From Candidatus Thorarchaeota archaeon (GTDB taxonomy: Archaea; Asgardarchaeota; Thorarchaeia; Thorarchaeales; Thorarchaeaceae): DNA of 64,000 nt. The DNA lies in the NCBI GenBank assembly GCA_011364985.1, contig RDOC01000003.1, positions 128,001 to 192,000 of the forward strand. Reading direction: 5' to 3'. The notes under the pieces are model-generated. The model was not told the origin of the DNA and did no database searches. It saw nothing but the letters and a program-made list of their open reading frames with translations. Below, piece after piece: positions 48,855 to 60,816 of the stretch (position 1 is the first letter of the stretch; each line of letters begins with the position of its first letter). The translations under genes and the position numbers were made by a program.

Positions 48855-48998
48855 TACAATGAATCACCCAATAAATAACAGGCCATCCATGCTCATTAAC
48901 GTTGATATTCACGTACCTTAGCATATCTTGATTCCTAGAGATTTGGTTTCGAGCTAAACAGCAACGTTAATATTCGAACATGCGACCTCAGCGGAACA

Positions 48999-49080
48999 GC
49001 CGCCGTAGCTCAGCCGGTAGAATCCTGTTTCCTTAGGGAACAGCATGTCGAAGATGACAGCCTGTCAAGTTGTTGGTTCC
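48999..49080 (+). pseudogene. Degenerate 5' two-thirds of a tRNA-Asn-like gene with one D-arm intron
   Basis: GCCGCCGTAGCTCAGCCGGTAG, hairpin intron, then G-ACAGC-CT-GTC-AA-GTTGT-TGGT (same anticodon stem as the 59.4-kb tRNA); T arm and 3' acceptor missing. Confidence 0.7.
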
Positions 49081-49217: not shown

Positions 49218-49706
49218 TCAGCCTATGATTCTATCGCCACCATTGGAGCAGTCATAGACATACTCCCCAGCAACGCAAATTGTTCTTGTGCTGCCATCTA
49301 TTTCCCTGACTCTGACCATCCATACTGGACGTGTTGGGTGTTTGTCGTAGGAGAGAAAGGCGGCAACAATTTCATCATCTGGTTCTATCCTATCTCTGAT
49401 AAAAGCCATAATGAACTCGGGGTCTAGCCAGTGCTTTGCCAACGGACAGTTCTTAGTGGAAGAAGGATGCCGCTGGAATGTGGAATACCTCATAAGGTTC
49501 AAATCTGTGTCGAATTGAAGATATCCAACAAGAAAGGAATCAATAGTTATACCAACATACCAAGAAACTGTCTTCTCATCTGGTCCAACAATTGGAATTG
49601 GTTGGTTGACCACTCCTTTTCGTGTTACGAAATCATTCTGTGCGATGTTTGACTTCAGCAAGTGTATGGCCTTTGAATGAATTCTCTGATTCATATCTTT
49701 CTGCAT
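49218..49706 (-). CDS. Hypothetical protein, possibly propeptide/inhibitor-like
   Basis: 162 aa, directly downstream of the peptidase gene. Confidence 0.65.
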   Translation of the reverse strand: MQKDMNQRIHSKAIHLLKSNIAQNDFVTRKGVVNQPIPIVGPDEKTVSWYVGITIDSFLVGYLQFDTDLNLMRYSTFQRHPSSTKNCPLAKHWLDPEFIMAFIRDRIEPDDEIVAAFLSYDKHPTRPVWMVRVREIDGSTRTICVAGEYVYDCSNGGDRIIG

Positions 49707-49713
49707 TTTTCTC

Positions 49714-50898
49714 TCATACCAATGTTAAAGCAGCTGTAAACGTATCCCAATAAGTTGTTAGGTCAAAATTCTCCCATCGAGCTATTGACCCTCCGGTAGG
49801 TGGCCAAGGATCATACACAAGAAGTCCACGGAAGGTATACCAAGTTCCTAGACGAGATCTTGTATATCCAGCTACTGTTCTTGAGTGCCCAGGAATCCAA
49901 CTGATTAGTGGCCTATTTGCATTGATTTCCGATACAAACTCATTCCAATTTGCATTGGTATTTCTATTTCCAGTTAAGGCCTGACTTGTGAGATCTTGAA
50001 GAACAGTTACCACATCGTTTGCACGAGAATATGGAAGACCATTTGGATTGGCACGAGTCCCAAGTCCCAACTCTTGTGCAAGACGGTCTTGAGTGTAGTT
50101 GTATCTATAGAAATCGAGAATCATCTGAACACTGGCTGCGACACACCAAACATTTGTCAATTGCCCTCTTAGTTCATAACAAGGATGATGGTCATCATTG
50201 TTGGTACTGTAATGCAATTCACGAGAAATGAAGAGTGACACCACAAGTTCTGCCGGAGTTAGAATTCTTGTGAAATCGGCCAATCTAAGATACTCCGGGT
50301 TAAACATCCTATCACCAACTGGATGCTTCTTGTCCCAGAAATCAATTCGTTCTTTGAAAGATTTCTTATTCTTTACTCTCTTCGCGCTTGGTATTTCTCT
50401 CAAAAGGGACCATCGCTCGAAGTGCCCAGGAGGCACCCCTGGAGTCCTAGGCTTTTCATCCGGAACCTTCTCCCATGTGAACAGCTCCAACATCAGCACT
50501 TCTCTTCCTCTTTGAAGAAATTGGATTGCCAGTTTTGGATAGCTATACGCCACGAATCGAGTTTGGTTGAATTTCACTCGATGTTTTCGTTCAGCAATCT
50601 GTTTTCCTTCCTTCAGCAGTTTTGGGAAACTCCAATCTGGTCCGAGCTGTATTGCCATCAGTGGATGCCCCAATTCTGGATTGGCCGCAATATCTGCTTG
50701 GAATACTTGACGACCCTTCTTTACTGGCACGCGATATAATAGTAGCTCGCCGTTTGTATCATAAACAGGAGTTCCAGACGACTGAACCTTACCATTCTCA
50801 AAGAGTTGCTTCGGCAAGATGCCCGAGTGAAGGAGTGCATTGAGTTCTAGTCCTGCAATGCGTTTTATCATATCACGTTTCAACATTAGTCCTATCAA
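49714..50898 (-). CDS. Papain-fold cysteine peptidase (C39-like) with long N-terminal domain
   Basis: QLTNVWCVAASVQM (Q..C), GHSRTVAGY (H), VYDPW (D). Confidence 0.8.
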   Translation of the reverse strand: MIGLMLKRDMIKRIAGLELNALLHSGILPKQLFENGKVQSSGTPVYDTNGELLLYRVPVKKGRQVFQADIAANPELGHPLMAIQLGPDWSFPKLLKEGKQIAERKHRVKFNQTRFVAYSYPKLAIQFLQRGREVLMLELFTWEKVPDEKPRTPGVPPGHFERWSLLREIPSAKRVKNKKSFKERIDFWDKKHPVGDRMFNPEYLRLADFTRILTPAELVVSLFISRELHYSTNNDDHHPCYELRGQLTNVWCVAASVQMILDFYRYNYTQDRLAQELGLGTRANPNGLPYSRANDVVTVLQDLTSQALTGNRNTNANWNEFVSEINANRPLISWIPGHSRTVAGYTRSRLGTWYTFRGLLVYDPWPPTGGSIARWENFDLTTYWDTFTAALTLV

Positions 50899-51301: not shown

Positions 51302-51320
51302 TAGGAAGCGCCACCGGGAG
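51302..51320. repeat. 19-bp direct repeat copy 1 (tRNA-Asn 3' end; putative att)
   Basis: TAGGAAGCGCCACCGGGAG identical to 59298-59316. Confidence 0.85.
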
Positions 51321-51391: not shown

Positions 51392-52786
51392 ATGGGGCCT
51401 AATCATATGTTTGACTATTTTCGTTGGCAAGGAGTTCCCACCTATCCCTTGACTCAATCAGATAAACCTCGAACTGCAGTCTTCTGGGATGCTGAGAATG
51501 TTAGTGAGATCACAGGGGCCGATGTCGTAGAGAATTTCAATACTTGGTTGGAAAATGACTATGATATTAATGCGAAATTTGCATTTGCTGACTGGAGTGG
51601 CCCCTATAGAGAGGTTGCTAATGCGCTAAACAGAATTGGATTTGACTTCATTCACGTTCCTGACGATTTGAAGGATAGTACTGATTATCAAATGGCCGCC
51701 TACATGATTGATTGGCTTCTACGTTCACCAGAAACCTCCTCCTATGTGATTGTTTCTGGTGATGCAGGGTTCGCACTAATTATGAGAGCGCTGCAAAAAC
51801 AGGGAAAGAAGGTAACAGTGGTTAGTAATCCAGTAGTCACCCGACCGGAGTACATGATTTATGCTGATAGATACGAGGACATTGACCGATTCAAGCCAAA
51901 GGCATTGAGAATAGACCCTCTGAAAGACGAAAAGGGAAAGAAGCTGACACCCGACGAGCTGAAAGAGGTGGCTGTACTCAGATTGTTGGAAACCATTGCA
52001 AGACTAGAAGGAGAGAACAGACCGACATATGACAAATATGTCAAAGTAATGTTATCCAGATACAATCCAGATATTTCCTTTGGACGACCTGGCTCTTATA
52101 ATTGGGAGGAAGCAATTACTGAATCCCTTTTTGATGGATTGATTGTGCATGAAGGGCAAGGAGTCACCGCACAGCTTAAGCTGACTAAGAAAGGAGCTGA
52201 AATGAGCGAAGGCCGTTCGGCCTCCGTTGAGAGCGCCCTCGAAAAGCTGGGAGAGATTGTCGAAACAATGTATGAGAAGGGGCAGCACACAGGAATGGAA
52301 TCAGTAGTTCATGAGGTGAGGAAGGCCAAAATTGACTATGTGGATTTTGGCTTTCAGAAATTCGGCGACTTTTCAAGAGCTGCAGAAGGTCGCAATATAA
52401 TCAGAATAGAAACTAAAGAGAGCAGCACTCCTATTATCAAACCAGTTTATTCTGAAGAAAGGGCTCGGATTTGGTATGAAACAAACCTAGAGAACTACTT
52501 CGGAAAAGGAGCAAGAATACCCCAATCAAGATTTGTTCAGAGGACAATACAGTTTCTCTATCAGTATGATGCTGGTTTCTCAAAACTTGAGTCATATCTA
52601 AGCGATGAGAAAACACAGAAAAGCTATGATGCAATTCTTGAAAACAGCGGAGTTTCTTTCATTCCGCCATATGAAAAAGTTCTTCTCACGCTTCTACTGG
52701 GATTGGGCATAGATTGCCAAGAAGCACTTGAAATTGTAAACCGAGAATTGGCTCCGCTCGGTTATGAACTCAAGTGTCCGGAGTAG
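51392..52786 (+). CDS. NYN-domain ribonuclease with LOTUS/OST-HTH domains
   Basis: VFWDAEN, KDSTD, IVSGDAGF; IDYVDFGFQKFGDF LOTUS-like motif. Confidence 0.8.
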   Translation: MGPNHMFDYFRWQGVPTYPLTQSDKPRTAVFWDAENVSEITGADVVENFNTWLENDYDINAKFAFADWSGPYREVANALNRIGFDFIHVPDDLKDSTDYQMAAYMIDWLLRSPETSSYVIVSGDAGFALIMRALQKQGKKVTVVSNPVVTRPEYMIYADRYEDIDRFKPKALRIDPLKDEKGKKLTPDELKEVAVLRLLETIARLEGENRPTYDKYVKVMLSRYNPDISFGRPGSYNWEEAITESLFDGLIVHEGQGVTAQLKLTKKGAEMSEGRSASVESALEKLGEIVETMYEKGQHTGMESVVHEVRKAKIDYVDFGFQKFGDFSRAAEGRNIIRIETKESSTPIIKPVYSEERARIWYETNLENYFGKGARIPQSRFVQRTIQFLYQYDAGFSKLESYLSDEKTQKSYDAILENSGVSFIPPYEKVLLTLLLGLGIDCQEALEIVNRELAPLGYELKCPE

Positions 52787-56652: not shown

Positions 56653-56661
56653 GTGGTTCGC

Positions 56662-58713
56662 ATGGCGGGACGTATCGAGAGCAGGGGCCGCGGTGAGAGG
56701 TCTGAGATACGGGATGCTGGCAGTGATGTGCGGGAGCTTCGGGAGGTACGGGACGCGGAGGAGGTTCAGGTTGAAACCGGGGAGGATGAGCATGCCGTTG
56801 AGCGGATTGAGCGGAGCGATGCGCAGGAACCCGTGGAGCGGAGGGTCGTTGATGCGATTCAGGAACTGGATGCTGAGGAAGGGCGTGAGAGCGACACGCG
56901 GAAACGGATTGCTGGTGCCCTCAGGGAGCTGGAGGAGATAGAGGGCGGGTCCGTCAGGGACAGGGTCGAGCGGGCAGTTGCGGAGGTCAAGGAGGAAGTT
57001 GAGAAACCGGACATTCCTCCTGAGAAGGACTTTGAGGATGCAAGAGAGGTAGTAGAGAGAGCCAAGGAGGTTGAAGAGGCAAACGTAGAGGCCAAGGAGG
57101 AAGAGAGTAGGGTATCAGAGTCGTCACCCAGAGAGGCGTTTGAGGATTCATCAGAACAACGGGCGGAGGGGGAGAAGCGCAAGGGGCTTGAGAGGGTTCC
57201 CGATGAACAGGTGCGCGAAACCTTCTCGGAGTTGGAATCGAAGGAGGGTGAACCACGAAGCTGGGCTTCGGAGGAGATTGCAGAAGGGCTGAAGCGGCTC
57301 GCTCCGGAAGACGCAGAGGTTTCTCGGGTCTATTGTGCAGACATTCGAGAGGGATTGGGCCTGACGCCGGAGGAGGTCGAGTCCTTCACGAATGAGTTTC
57401 AGCAGGCGAAGGAGGCACTTGAGGCAGAGGGGGAGGTTCGATGTGGCATGGTGGATGAGAAGGTCTACATTTGGAGGCCAGACTTGGACCCAACCCAGCT
57501 TGAGAATGCTTATGGCAATCTCTACTACTATTTCCGTGATGAAGAAGCATTTGAGAAGTATATCTGGGATATTGCGTGTCCTCTGGGAATTGAGGGGGAT
57601 GATGAGAAGCAGAACATTGAACATCTTCAGAAGCTAGCCTCTCAGATGTTGACTGAGCCTACGAGTGAATACTGCGTGAATCCTAGACTCAATCGTATTC
57701 GTGGAGATCATGTCCATTTTTTTAATAATTTGTCTGGAAAGACACTGTCTGAGTTGGAAGGTGAGATTTCAAAGATCACTAAGAAGGGTGGTCGAGGAGG
57801 AATTAGGAATCCGAGGTTTCCTGAAGGCGAGGAGTTGGAGATTGCATTGGCTCGCCTTACTGCTGTCGCTGTCAGCGATTGCCACCTGAAAGCAAATGGA
57901 ACCCTTGAGTATGCTGAGGGGGAGATAAGTCGGATACGTATAGTTGAGAGAGATCTTCAGGTGTTTGGAGATATTAGAATGAATCCAAAGTTAAAAGAGA
58001 GAGAGAATTTCTATGAAGTCTTCTTGCCTTCTCCATTCGGAATCGTGTTATTACACCTAGGAATACCTTCAGGTGACCGGACGGTCCAGAATCCAGGGCT
58101 TTATCCGGAACTTAGGGAGTTCTCAGTAAAGGCCCAGTGTGGATTTATTGAGAATCTAATCCCTCAAGATGGAACCATTAGCAGAAAGAATGTTCAGTGG
58201 ACTCACTCAAACGCCCTACATGCAGGCGATAAAACAGAAATCTATGGAATCGAGCCCAAAGTGGGGCGCAAAGAAATCAATTTGATAATTGAAGAGGGGA
58301 AGAGAGAGAAACACAGTTGGGTACTTAATTACGGAAAACTGGAAGAGCTTAGACAATCTGATTCAGATAATCTTAGACATATTGCAGACAGTCTATGGAA
58401 CATTGTTTATGAAAATCCCAACCGACTAGTTGAGGATGAGATAAGAATTGTTAGAAAGTTGGGTGTAAATTATAATGCAAAACCATACACAATCCGATAT
58501 CATGAGAGGAGTGGGCGGGTTTCTGTTGCTTGGACAGCAGAACCAGAGAGTGTTCTTGAATCAATCAAGCTAGCGATGATTGCCCCTTCTAATGATGTAA
58601 TTAAAAGACAGATCATGAGGGATTTGATTGCAAATCATCCTAAATACATGAGAAGAGCACTTCGGCAATTCGAAAAGAACGGTATAGAGGTTTATCAGTG
58701 GTGGACATCATGA
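56662..58713 (+). CDS. Protein with Glu-rich N-terminus and LAGLIDADG-like (DOD-type) C-terminal region
   Basis: LARLTAVAVSDCHL and FIENLIPQDGTI resemble the two LAGLIDADG helices, with LLHLGIPSGDRT between; ATG at 56662 (track start GTG 56653). Confidence 0.6.
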   Translation: MAGRIESRGRGERSEIRDAGSDVRELREVRDAEEVQVETGEDEHAVERIERSDAQEPVERRVVDAIQELDAEEGRESDTRKRIAGALRELEEIEGGSVRDRVERAVAEVKEEVEKPDIPPEKDFEDAREVVERAKEVEEANVEAKEEESRVSESSPREAFEDSSEQRAEGEKRKGLERVPDEQVRETFSELESKEGEPRSWASEEIAEGLKRLAPEDAEVSRVYCADIREGLGLTPEEVESFTNEFQQAKEALEAEGEVRCGMVDEKVYIWRPDLDPTQLENAYGNLYYYFRDEEAFEKYIWDIACPLGIEGDDEKQNIEHLQKLASQMLTEPTSEYCVNPRLNRIRGDHVHFFNNLSGKTLSELEGEISKITKKGGRGGIRNPRFPEGEELEIALARLTAVAVSDCHLKANGTLEYAEGEISRIRIVERDLQVFGDIRMNPKLKERENFYEVFLPSPFGIVLLHLGIPSGDRTVQNPGLYPELREFSVKAQCGFIENLIPQDGTISRKNVQWTHSNALHAGDKTEIYGIEPKVGRKEINLIIEEGKREKHSWVLNYGKLEELRQSDSDNLRHIADSLWNIVYENPNRLVEDEIRIVRKLGVNYNAKPYTIRYHERSGRVSVAWTAEPESVLESIKLAMIAPSNDVIKRQIMRDLIANHPKYMRRALRQFEKNGIEVYQWWTS

Positions 58714-59300
58714 ATATGAATGAGATGATACAAAAAGCTGCTGGGATTGTTACAAACATACTTGCAAGGATTGAATCACGGCAATTGCCCCTGAAAGATG
58801 TGAAGATTAGAGTGAGTGAGAAACTGGAGGGGGCAGACGATATTAATGCGACTGTGGATAAAGCAATAGAGTGGGCACTAGATAATTGGATAGTGGATAA
58901 GGTCTTGGACTATGATGAGGATGACGAGGAATTTGCTGGAGAGCTAGTATGGTTCCTACGTGCAACAACAGAAGAAGAAGCCGAGTATCTAGGTCGCTTG
59001 TCGAAAGCAGAGCATGCTCTACTAAATATCCTGAGAAATGCTGAAAACGAAAGCAGACTAGGAGTAATTCGGGCAAATGAAGCTCTTCAGAGATTGCGTA
59101 AACTAGGGTTTGATTTAAAGTCTGCACCATCTATTATTGGAAAGACAAGTAGTTTCTTCAGGCCGGAGAATGGAAAGCTGATTGAGTTCAAATATCTACT
59201 TTCTGAAGAAGAGAAATCTGAGGAGTATGTAACAGCTCTGAAAGAACTTGATGAGAAAGAACGCAGGAAACAAGAACGTTTGGATAGGATGAATGAATAG
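58698..59300 (+). CDS. Hypothetical protein (winged-helix-like), translationally coupled to the upstream gene
   Basis: ATG at 58710 overlaps the upstream TGA; its stop lies within the 19-bp repeat. Confidence 0.7.
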   Translation: MVDIMNMNEMIQKAAGIVTNILARIESRQLPLKDVKIRVSEKLEGADDINATVDKAIEWALDNWIVDKVLDYDEDDEEFAGELVWFLRATTEEEAEYLGRLSKAEHALLNILRNAENESRLGVIRANEALQRLRKLGFDLKSAPSIIGKTSSFFRPENGKLIEFKYLLSEEEKSEEYVTALKELDEKERRKQERLDRMNE

Positions 59301-59316
59301 GAAGCGCCACCGGGAG
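59298..59316. repeat. 19-bp direct repeat copy 2 (overlaps the tRNA-Asn 3' end)
   Basis: Identical to 51302-51320. Confidence 0.85.
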
Positions 59317-59529
59317 GATCATCGATCGCTCCGGAAATCGAAGCGAAGCTCGAACCTCCGACCATTCGTCGCACACCACGGAATGTGATGCACTACAACT
59401 GTCTGGCTCTCAACCAGCCGGCTGAAAGATAACAGGCTTTAGCGGCATGGCGCAGTACGCGTCCACTGCTGTCGCTTTCGATGTAAGGCTCCCTTGGGAA
59501 CCTCACCCTACCGACTGAGCCACGGTGGC
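59305..59529 (-). tRNA. tRNA-Asn(GTT) interrupted by five BHB-type introns
   Basis: Exons 59529-59508, 59476-59471, 59438-59430, 59400-59395, 59364-59349, 59318-59305 join to GCCACCG TG GCTC AGTCGGTA GAGC G ACAGC CT GTT AA GTTGT TGGTC GGAGG TTCGAGT CCTCC CGGTGGC G (73 nt, all stems pair, G73). Confidence 0.88.
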
Positions 59530-59639
59530 TGAGTTGGCTGAGGCTGCGGATTACAATATTAACATTGCTGTTGAGGTTCGCAACCAATGACATATCTGAG
59601 AAGATAACCAGAGAGTAGAGAGGACTCATGAGAGCCAAC

Positions 59640-59925: not shown

Positions 59926-60816
59926 ATGGATGATTCGGGTTTGAGTTTCGAAGAACGTAATGAGGCCCTAGATAAGGGAGTGGAATATCTCCGACACGTA
60001 ACACTGGTGATTTTAGCAGCTTGCGGAGCATTCTGGACAGCCACAAGAGCAGATGAAGCTGCTTTTCCTTGGATAATCATGGTTTACGGCGGCGCCATTT
60101 CTTTTACTCCAGATAGAAGAAGGAGATTCCTTAGTACTGCCAAGAGAAGATTTATTCGCCTTGACGGCTAGTTGCAAGTAGATTGGGTGGAGAGGAGAAG
60201 AATTCCAAAGGAATACTATCGAGATAGTAAGAGTGAAGAAATAGAACGGATGATTAGAAGAGATCCCCACTACAAAGATTGGATTGTGATGCGTTTTCGC
60301 TCCTCGGGCGGATTATCAGATTATGAAGACATGCTTGAGATTCAAAATGCGAAAGGGAAAAGTGTCACAGAATTATCAGAGTCAGAAGTTGACCTCTTGA
60401 TCTCATCTGGAACCTTGTTTTTTGTACTTGAAAATTGTCAGAGAATGGGATTTTTCAGAAGATTCGGTTCTCGTACACCTTATGTCATACTCCTTGTACT
60501 ATTTGCAGGTATGATCTTTGCCTTTGTTGTAGGGACTGTTTTCTTTGAATACATCAGGACGCTACCAGCTGAGCAAGGATTGCTCGGATTCATTCTCTTC
60601 TTCGCGGTACTCTTCTGCTTTGCAGGAATCCTATGTTTTTCACAAAGAAACAATCATAGACGAGAGCAGGAAGCTGATTTTGCTAGAAGTAAGCAGGAGC
60701 CTATCTCAGACGAGTTACTTGATGATATTCTTGATAAAACAGAGAAGCTTGCAGATTTGAAACAAAACGATCCATCAGAATACATCCATAGGTTGAGAGA
60801 ACTGGCTGATGACTAG
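59926..60816 (+). CDS. Membrane protein, apparently split by an in-frame TAG at 60169 (ORFs 59926-60171 and 60172-60816)
   Basis: Two abutting same-frame ORFs; the downstream part has two TM helices. Confidence 0.5.

Follow-up and report, generated by a model that had tools for sequence, protein, structure and literature searches.

A tRNA-Asn gene with five BHB introns in a Thorarchaeota genome: a mosaic allele probably imported beside a candidate homing nuclease

How does a single tRNA gene come to be interrupted five times, and does it still yield a working tRNA? The question is raised by a tRNA-Asn(GTT) gene on the minus strand (59529-59305) of the window, a 64,000-nt stretch (positions 128,001 to 192,000) of contig RDOC01000003.1 from a metagenome-assembled genome of Candidatus Thorarchaeota archaeon (GCA_011364985.1). 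The locus is a genuine five-intron BHB tRNA-Asn gene. All of the coordinates, lengths and central helices that a first-pass annotation, made from the letters of the DNA, had given for the five introns (Table 1), as well as the intronic share of 152 of 225 nt, proved exact. Joining of the exons (22, 6, 9, 6, 16 and 14 nt) results in the 73-nt cloverleaf proposed there, which ARAGORN recognizes as tRNA-Asn(gtt) with stems of 7/4/5/5, all four of them intact. The spliced product is identical to an intron-free ortholog (L069) at 69 of 73 positions, with a compensatory 4-69 change. A genome-wide spliced-alignment scan, to which the coordinates were not supplied and which was trained on 15 sequences (one of them the mature sequence of this gene), gave the identical five-intron parse. 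The expectation that standard scanners would miss the gene held as far as ARAGORN and Rfam cmscan are concerned, both being blind to the unspliced gene; the two intron-free tRNA-Asn orthologs score 70-71 bits with cmscan.

Table 1 Features of the five-intron tRNA-Asn gene and its surroundings (coordinates of the window; features in order of position)
Feature	Coordinates	Strand	Remarks
Decayed 5' part of former resident tRNA-Asn	48959..49077	+	promoter, positions 1 to ~47
19-bp repeat of tRNA 3' end, cassette boundary	51302..51320	-	scars in relatives begin at 62/63
HerA/VirB4-like ATPase, 905 aa	53935..56652	+	Pfam DUF87
686-aa free-standing protein, predicted LAGLIDADG fold	56653..58713	+	motif acidic residues D409, D506
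200-aa cassette gene, family not assigned	58698..59300	+	ends 5 nt from tRNA 3' end
Exon 6, 60-73	59305..59318	-	CCA not encoded; CTT follows
Intron 5, T-loop 59/60, 30 nt	59319..59348	-	helix 3/4; site filled in 35/60 orthologs
Exon 5, 44-59	59349..59364	-	
Intron 4, 43/44, 30 nt	59365..59394	-	helix 3/4; 21/60 orthologs; 93% to G033
Exon 4, 38-43, 6 nt	59395..59400	-	one central-helix strand plus two bulge bases
Intron 3, canonical 37/38, 29 nt	59401..59429	-	helix 3/4; 49/60 orthologs; 100% to G084
Exon 3, 29-37	59430..59438	-	bears GTT anticodon
Intron 2, 28/29, 32 nt	59439..59470	-	helix 4/4; 23/60 orthologs; nearest relative G010, 88%
Exon 2, 23-28, 6 nt	59471..59476	-	one strand of the central helix and two bulge bases, nothing else
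Intron 1, 22/23, 31 nt	59477..59507	-	helix 4/4; hairpin z -5.1; 24/60 orthologs
Exon 1, tRNA positions 1-22	59508..59529	-	
Promoter-like element, archaeal BRE/TATA	59555..59570	-	~25 nt upstream of G1
3' end of former resident tRNA-Asn, ~63-76 with CCA	60085..60097	+	11-nt exact match

The junctions of all five introns are fixed because orthologs without each intron exist. The doubt of 1-2 nt that the first-pass annotation had left on introns 4 and 5 is thereby settled at 43/44 and 59/60. The (+1,-1) registers of these two introns, in which the tRNA gains 2 nt, were ruled out against the orthologs, and a 60/61 junction for intron 5, with a helix reduced to 1/4, is equally at odds with them. 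Every junction forms a canonical or relaxed BHB that is cut after the second bulge base; for each junction, a random genomic segment would offer an equally good central helix and intron stem with a probability of 8e-5 to 7e-3. The intron stems covary among tRNA-Asn orthologs, nearly all of which have the same BRE/TATA-like motif at the same spacing. We regard the gene as almost certainly functional. The check for another tRNA-Asn, which had been recommended, detected no second intact copy by ARAGORN or the spliced scan in an assembly that is 74% complete, so that another copy could be unassembled.

The host has a predicted broad-specificity two-subunit EndA and an RNA ligase. The EndA alpha subunit contains a Y126/H134/K165 triad and a specificity loop that was aligned to that of A. 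pernix (PDB code: 3P1Z, E 2e-46); in Aeropyrum pernix EndA this loop permits relaxed motifs (PMC3241643). The beta paralog does not have the histidine and is non-catalytic. The best named matches of EndA are from Ca. Thorarchaeota, and the genome also encodes RtcB and a CCA-adding enzyme. We propose that the gene's own promoter drives the synthesis of a ~225-nt precursor, which would be cut by EndA, an (alpha-beta)2 enzyme whose specificity loop is of the Crenarchaea type, behind the second bulge base of every BHB, canonical or relaxed. The exons would then be joined by RtcB, and CCA would be added afterwards. Splicing of the five-intron transcript itself we regard as very likely; contigs from three metatranscriptomes of the same study did not match the locus. 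Motifs 22 and 28 both need three bases of exon 2, which the former uses on its outer side and the latter in its central helix; exon 4 is shared in the same way by motifs 37 and 43, and at least two rounds of cutting, joining and refolding are therefore needed. Constrained folding yields a mild preference for 28 before 22 and for 43 before 37, with 28 and then 43 coming first. A strictly obligatory order was rejected, all central helices being available in the full precursor and the modelled orders differing only by ~4 kcal/mol. It counts against the proposed route that the predicted BHB conformers cost 2.4-5.2 kcal/mol within the full precursor. For intron 5, the rival (+1,-1) register is predicted to be ~2.9 kcal/mol more stable and would leave a 9-nt T-loop. 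Ordered processing was shown experimentally for the three-intron precursors of C. merolae (PMC3728597), and the present gene is a compact substrate to ask how EndA orders five overlapping cuts.

The origin of the introns can be approached through 60 complete tRNA-Asn alleles of the Thorarchaeaceae with between 0 and 5 introns each (mean 2.7), distributed over six sites (22, 28, 37, 43, 50 and 59) in 20 patterns. Two alleles are intron-free and three have five introns: that of this genome, that of G100 (L164), with the same five positions and different sequences, and that of G086 (L055), with introns at 22, 28, 37, 43 and 50, i.e. 50/51 in place of 59/60. The G100 allele bears on the idea that the gene is a pseudogene, or an assembly chimera of several strain alleles. 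While the metagenomic origin of the genome and the three relaxed motifs would suit this idea, the four stems and the promoter are intact, the gene sits on a 222-kb contig, the internal exons of 6-16 nt would not be long enough for alleles of different strains to become linked during assembly through a graph, and the same five positions recur in G100 with other sequences; we consider it very improbable. All four combinations of presence and absence occur in 13 of the 15 site pairs, and sites 50 and 59 never co-occur in the 60 alleles (P 4e-5). As six sites circulate in the family, an allele with six introns can be imagined.

Introns at the same position share a mean identity of 0.57-0.79 at five sites, values that are inflated by the splicing constraint on intron ends. 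At site 59 the mean identity is 0.49, compared to 0.47 for shuffled sequences; introns there being no more alike than shuffled ones, separate origins are implied. Introns at 43/44 and 50/51 (0.66 compared to 0.47 shuffled) look like one sequence family, which suggests a shift from one site to the other within this tRNA. On an RpoB tree the six sites need 66 changes, with 22, 28 and 50 fitting no better than shuffled labels and with some tree signal at 37 and 43 (p 0.02 and 0.002, respectively); this is a single-gene tree, and many of the ortholog contigs are short, so that misbinning can mimic transfer (G105 was dropped on this ground). Each intron of the five-intron gene has its own distinct nearest relative. 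Intron 3 is identical in 29 of 29 nt to its counterpart in G084, which belongs to another genus (four-fold-site identity 38%, saturated), and the two further introns common to both genes are 61% and 37% identical. Close genome pairs (87-91% four-fold identity) differ in their whole intron architecture; tRNA-Asn of the sister genome G016 has a single intron, and no LAGLIDADG match was found in that genome; in the near-identical genomes G087 and G088 the introns at the same site are only 41% identical. tRNA-Val is also mosaic, so mosaicism is not special to tRNA-Asn.

The flanks of the gene contain the pieces of a different allele. The 5' remnant has a different 22/23 intron, 94%, 87% and 84% like those of the same-genus G008, G016 and G010, and none at 28, 37 or 43; it occupies the site of the intact tRNA-Asn in the complete genome G064. 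The corresponding 3' remnant was expected in the interval that separates the promoter from the next gene, and a search of this interval found it. The intact five-intron gene lies inverted between both remnants, inside an insertion of ~11 kb. Import fits these data better than duplication in place followed by divergence, because the dead copy resembles close relatives. A stepwise gain of the five introns at this locus is improbable. We propose that a mosaic allele, with introns at five of the six family-wide sites, would have entered as a replacement copy and split an older one-intron gene. Such an import appears probable, as does the whole reading, namely a working single-copy tRNA-Asn spliced by EndA and RtcB, whose mosaic allele would have been imported within the insertion. 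The inverted orientation of the inserted gene counts against import, which gives no account of the inversion. A search for a tyrosine integrase gave no PF00589 match in the 74%-complete assembly.

A vertical history would start from an intron-rich ancestor, followed by independent losses (e.g. by conversion from spliced RNA) and the retention of five introns here, the genes beside the tRNA being unconnected arrivals at a frequently used insertion site. The family-wide homology of same-position introns at five sites and the tree signal at 37 and 43 agree with such a history, and the splicing constraint on intron ends, which raises identity, can be cited on its side. It does not account for the second, different allele lying in pieces around the gene, and it is hard to reconcile with an intron 3 that is identical across genera while the neighbouring introns are far more diverged, with the different same-site introns of G087 and G088, or with the shuffled-level identity at site 59. 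We consider a vertical history unlikely.

In relatives (L078 in G035, L149, L156 and L158), several 5' fragments of tRNA-Asn with their promoter, as well as several 3' scars, are stacked within one genome, which indicates repeated insertions at tRNA-Asn. A 214-aa gene of no known family (60172-60816), which in relatives has tRNA-Asn on one side and a 14-bp scar of the tRNA-Asn 3' end on the other, represents a second island type at tRNA-Asn. The ~11-kb insertion also includes a gene pair, the larger member of which has by eye a papain-like (C39-type) Cys...His look, and an NYN-domain gene (49218-50898 and 51392-52786).

The imported allele would have arrived in the company of a cassette that lies tail-to-tail with tRNA-Asn and comprises the 200-aa gene, the 686-aa gene and the ATPase gene. 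Homologs of the 200-aa gene are found at the same place in G035, G076, G088 and G098, and the HerA/VirB4-like ATPase matches homologs beside tRNA-Asn in genus g5 at 59-67%. The structural model of the 686-aa protein (pLDDT 92) has Foldseek matches to I-DmoI, I-Tsp061I and PI-SceI (E 1e-5 to 1e-4) as well as an Atlas match, and in the alignment the acidic residue of each motif (D and D/E) is kept in 26 of 26 homologs. The protein is thus predicted to have a two-domain LAGLIDADG fold and is a candidate homing nuclease; WhiA-type non-nuclease relatives have the same LAGLIDADG fold. The family is present in 51 of the 86 genomes searched and was not found in G016, G008 and G010. Its closest members face the 3' ends of tRNAs for Asn, Lys, Val, Phe, Ala, Met, Gly, Asp and Ser. 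We also considered that the 19-bp scar at the cassette boundary crosses the intron-5 junction and records an intronless state; this was rejected, as the scars of relatives start at 62/63. A broken LAGLIDADG-like homolog with stop codons lies ~3 kb from tRNA-Trp (G000 C15:40100-41123).

The candidate nuclease offers a possible extension of the import explanation, which does not replace it: the enzyme would cut tRNA-Asn alleles near 62/63, its own allele would need an intron for immunity, and both would spread together. The protecting intron would be 59/60 or 50/51, possibly 37/38, and would be needed because the cassette rebuilds the tRNA 3' end; successive nuclease variants would stack introns. 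A T-arm intron is present in all 21 LAGLIDADG-adjacent Asn alleles (from six genera) and in 20 of the 33 others (Fisher p 0.0007; p 0.004 when the intronless G104, with a broken nuclease and outside the 60-allele set, is added), a category that was defined after seeing the data and that counts alleles which are not independent. The 37/38 intron is found in 21/21 nuclease-adjacent and 25/33 other alleles. The mutual exclusion of sites 50 and 59, the scars that begin at 62/63, 3 nt from intron 5, and the conserved acidic residues of the motifs point in the same direction. So does the fact that 20 of 22 other tRNAs beside the nuclease family have introns; next to two of the three intronless neighbours the nuclease-family gene has internal stops, and next to the third its frame is unusually short (400 aa). 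The T-arm association, the 50/59 exclusion and the 62/63 scars together form the pattern predicted by intron immunity, as in collaborative homing. On the other side, the 62/63 scar also flanks nuclease-free islands (G016, G020 and G095) and could be made by an integrase; mean intron numbers are only modestly apart (3.1 in nuclease-adjacent alleles, 2.5 in the others), sites 22, 28 and 43 have no association with the nuclease, and the five-intron G086 has no adjacent nuclease match. We hold this extension, with its putative target site and cleavage, as tentative, and intron-conferred immunity less surely than the import of the allele. In its broadest form, for which our confidence is slightly lower still, tRNA introns of Thorarchaeia would accumulate since 3'-docked LAGLIDADG cassettes cut rivals and import intron-immune replacement tRNAs; the present gene would then be a five-intron end product beside the remains of the allele that it replaced.

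Nuclease-adjacent tRNA-Ala(GGC) genes (L228, L230, L241, L243, L247 and L225) have mostly D-loop introns and the adjacent tRNA-Phe genes (L229, L233, L235 and L220) mostly T-arm introns, as if each nuclease subfamily had its own target region.

Introns may, on the other hand, have been selected on the side of the host, tRNA-Asn being an integration hotspot at which they break the attachment or cleavage sites of incoming elements, an idea of defence against integration that was discussed previously (PMC3293823). The many 5' fragments and 3' scars around tRNA-Asn in relatives are in line with this proposal, and so is the fact that Asn is richer in introns than Val-GAC across the family. However, intron-rich alleles occur with the cassette rather than free of it, and four- and five-intron alleles are still occupied by elements, and we consider defence an improbable explanation; import of a mosaic allele is our preferred reading.

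A rough genome-wide census yielded 44 tRNA genes with at least 48 introns (about 1.1 per gene), a count in which some long "introns" probably hide two. Sixteen genes have no intron, 15 have one, nine have two and two have three, while Tyr has four and Asn, the outlier, has five. The tRNA-Tyr gene (G000 C15:169402-169595), with apparently four introns and a 3-nt exon, was found only by anchor search. The genes for tRNA-Met (C15:147347-147512), Thr(CGT) (C16:75421-75551) and Thr(TGT) (C15:149802-149953) contain inserts of 50-62 nt, each of which may be a pair of introns, nested or in tandem. There was no sign that the introns of tRNA-Asn had been copied from those of other tRNAs in the genome: the best cross-isotype identity was 0.58-0.67, within the shuffled range, and no further genomic copy was found.

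Several known systems resemble this locus in part. The tRNAs of Thermoproteales (up to three introns, PMC8450103) and of Cyanidioschyzon merolae (up to three, PMC3728597) also have non-canonical BHB introns that are removed sequentially; in contrast, the gene described here has five. Its introns are common to orthologs by position and not shared across isotypes within the genome, with 43/44 and 50/51 forming one cross-position family; intron transposition of the Thermoproteales type would leave closely related introns in tRNAs of different type within a genome, and none were found. The tRNA-Thr(GGU) locus of Caldiarchaeum (Sugahara 2012, PMC3293823) likewise has a 5' fragment with fewer introns near an intact allele with more, and intron gain was attributed there to an incoming element with a recombinase gene and a direct repeat. 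In the Thorarchaeota locus both ends of the old gene persist around a new gene that is complete and inverted; the linked protein has a predicted LAGLIDADG fold, and no integrase was found (PF00589, 74%-complete assembly). A comparable arrangement, in which a free-standing gene for a homing endonuclease neighbours a tRNA gene or an intron that has no ORF, is known from collaborative homing in T3-like phages and a cyanophage (PMC10448857) and from HeimM2 of Heimdallarchaeum (PMC8813620). Unlike those, the present case concerns a tRNA gene of the chromosome and BHB introns of 30 nt that depend on proteins for their splicing; cleavage and immunity would be predicted for it.

The closest parallels are the interrupted tRNAs of other Asgard archaea. 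In Atabeyarchaeia and Freyarchaeia, tRNA genes with four introns have been listed (Valentin-Alvarado 2024, PMC11291895 Suppl. Data 4), and "up to five in a single gene" were reported for other Asgard classes in a recent preprint (Goswami, October 2026, bioRxiv 10.64898/2026.10.13.758758). The first-pass view that five would be exceptional against a ceiling of about three does not stand, since five-intron tRNAs are already catalogued in that preprint and two further five-intron alleles exist in the family; the count ties the highest that we found reported and is not a record. These Asgard systems share with ours short non-canonical BHB introns, several per gene, a two-paralog EndA, repeated recent gains and no copying between tRNA types. 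They concern Jordi/Freyr- and Atabeyarchaeia, whereas ours is a Thorarchaeota genome of ~1.1 introns per gene in which Asn is the outlier; "Thorarch" is absent from the main text of the preprint. According to the preprint, genes too disrupted for tRNAscan-SE would be invisible to its census, splicing in Asgard cells has been demonstrated for none of its new sequences, and intron arrival is the central open problem, with no route found; in the parts consulted, it has no test of same-gene allele exchange or of free-standing LAGLIDADG genes. The present gene extends the five-intron count to Thorarchaeia, and the blindness of ARAGORN and Rfam implies that intron censuses may undercount this archaeal class. 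With a candidate nuclease, a panel of 60 alleles and the displaced allele on the same contig, the locus provides a direct test of intron arrival, and import with the cassette, if true, would be the missing route. What it adds to the known systems is its context, a probable allele replacement beside a candidate homing nuclease, which suggests a testable way for tRNA introns to spread.
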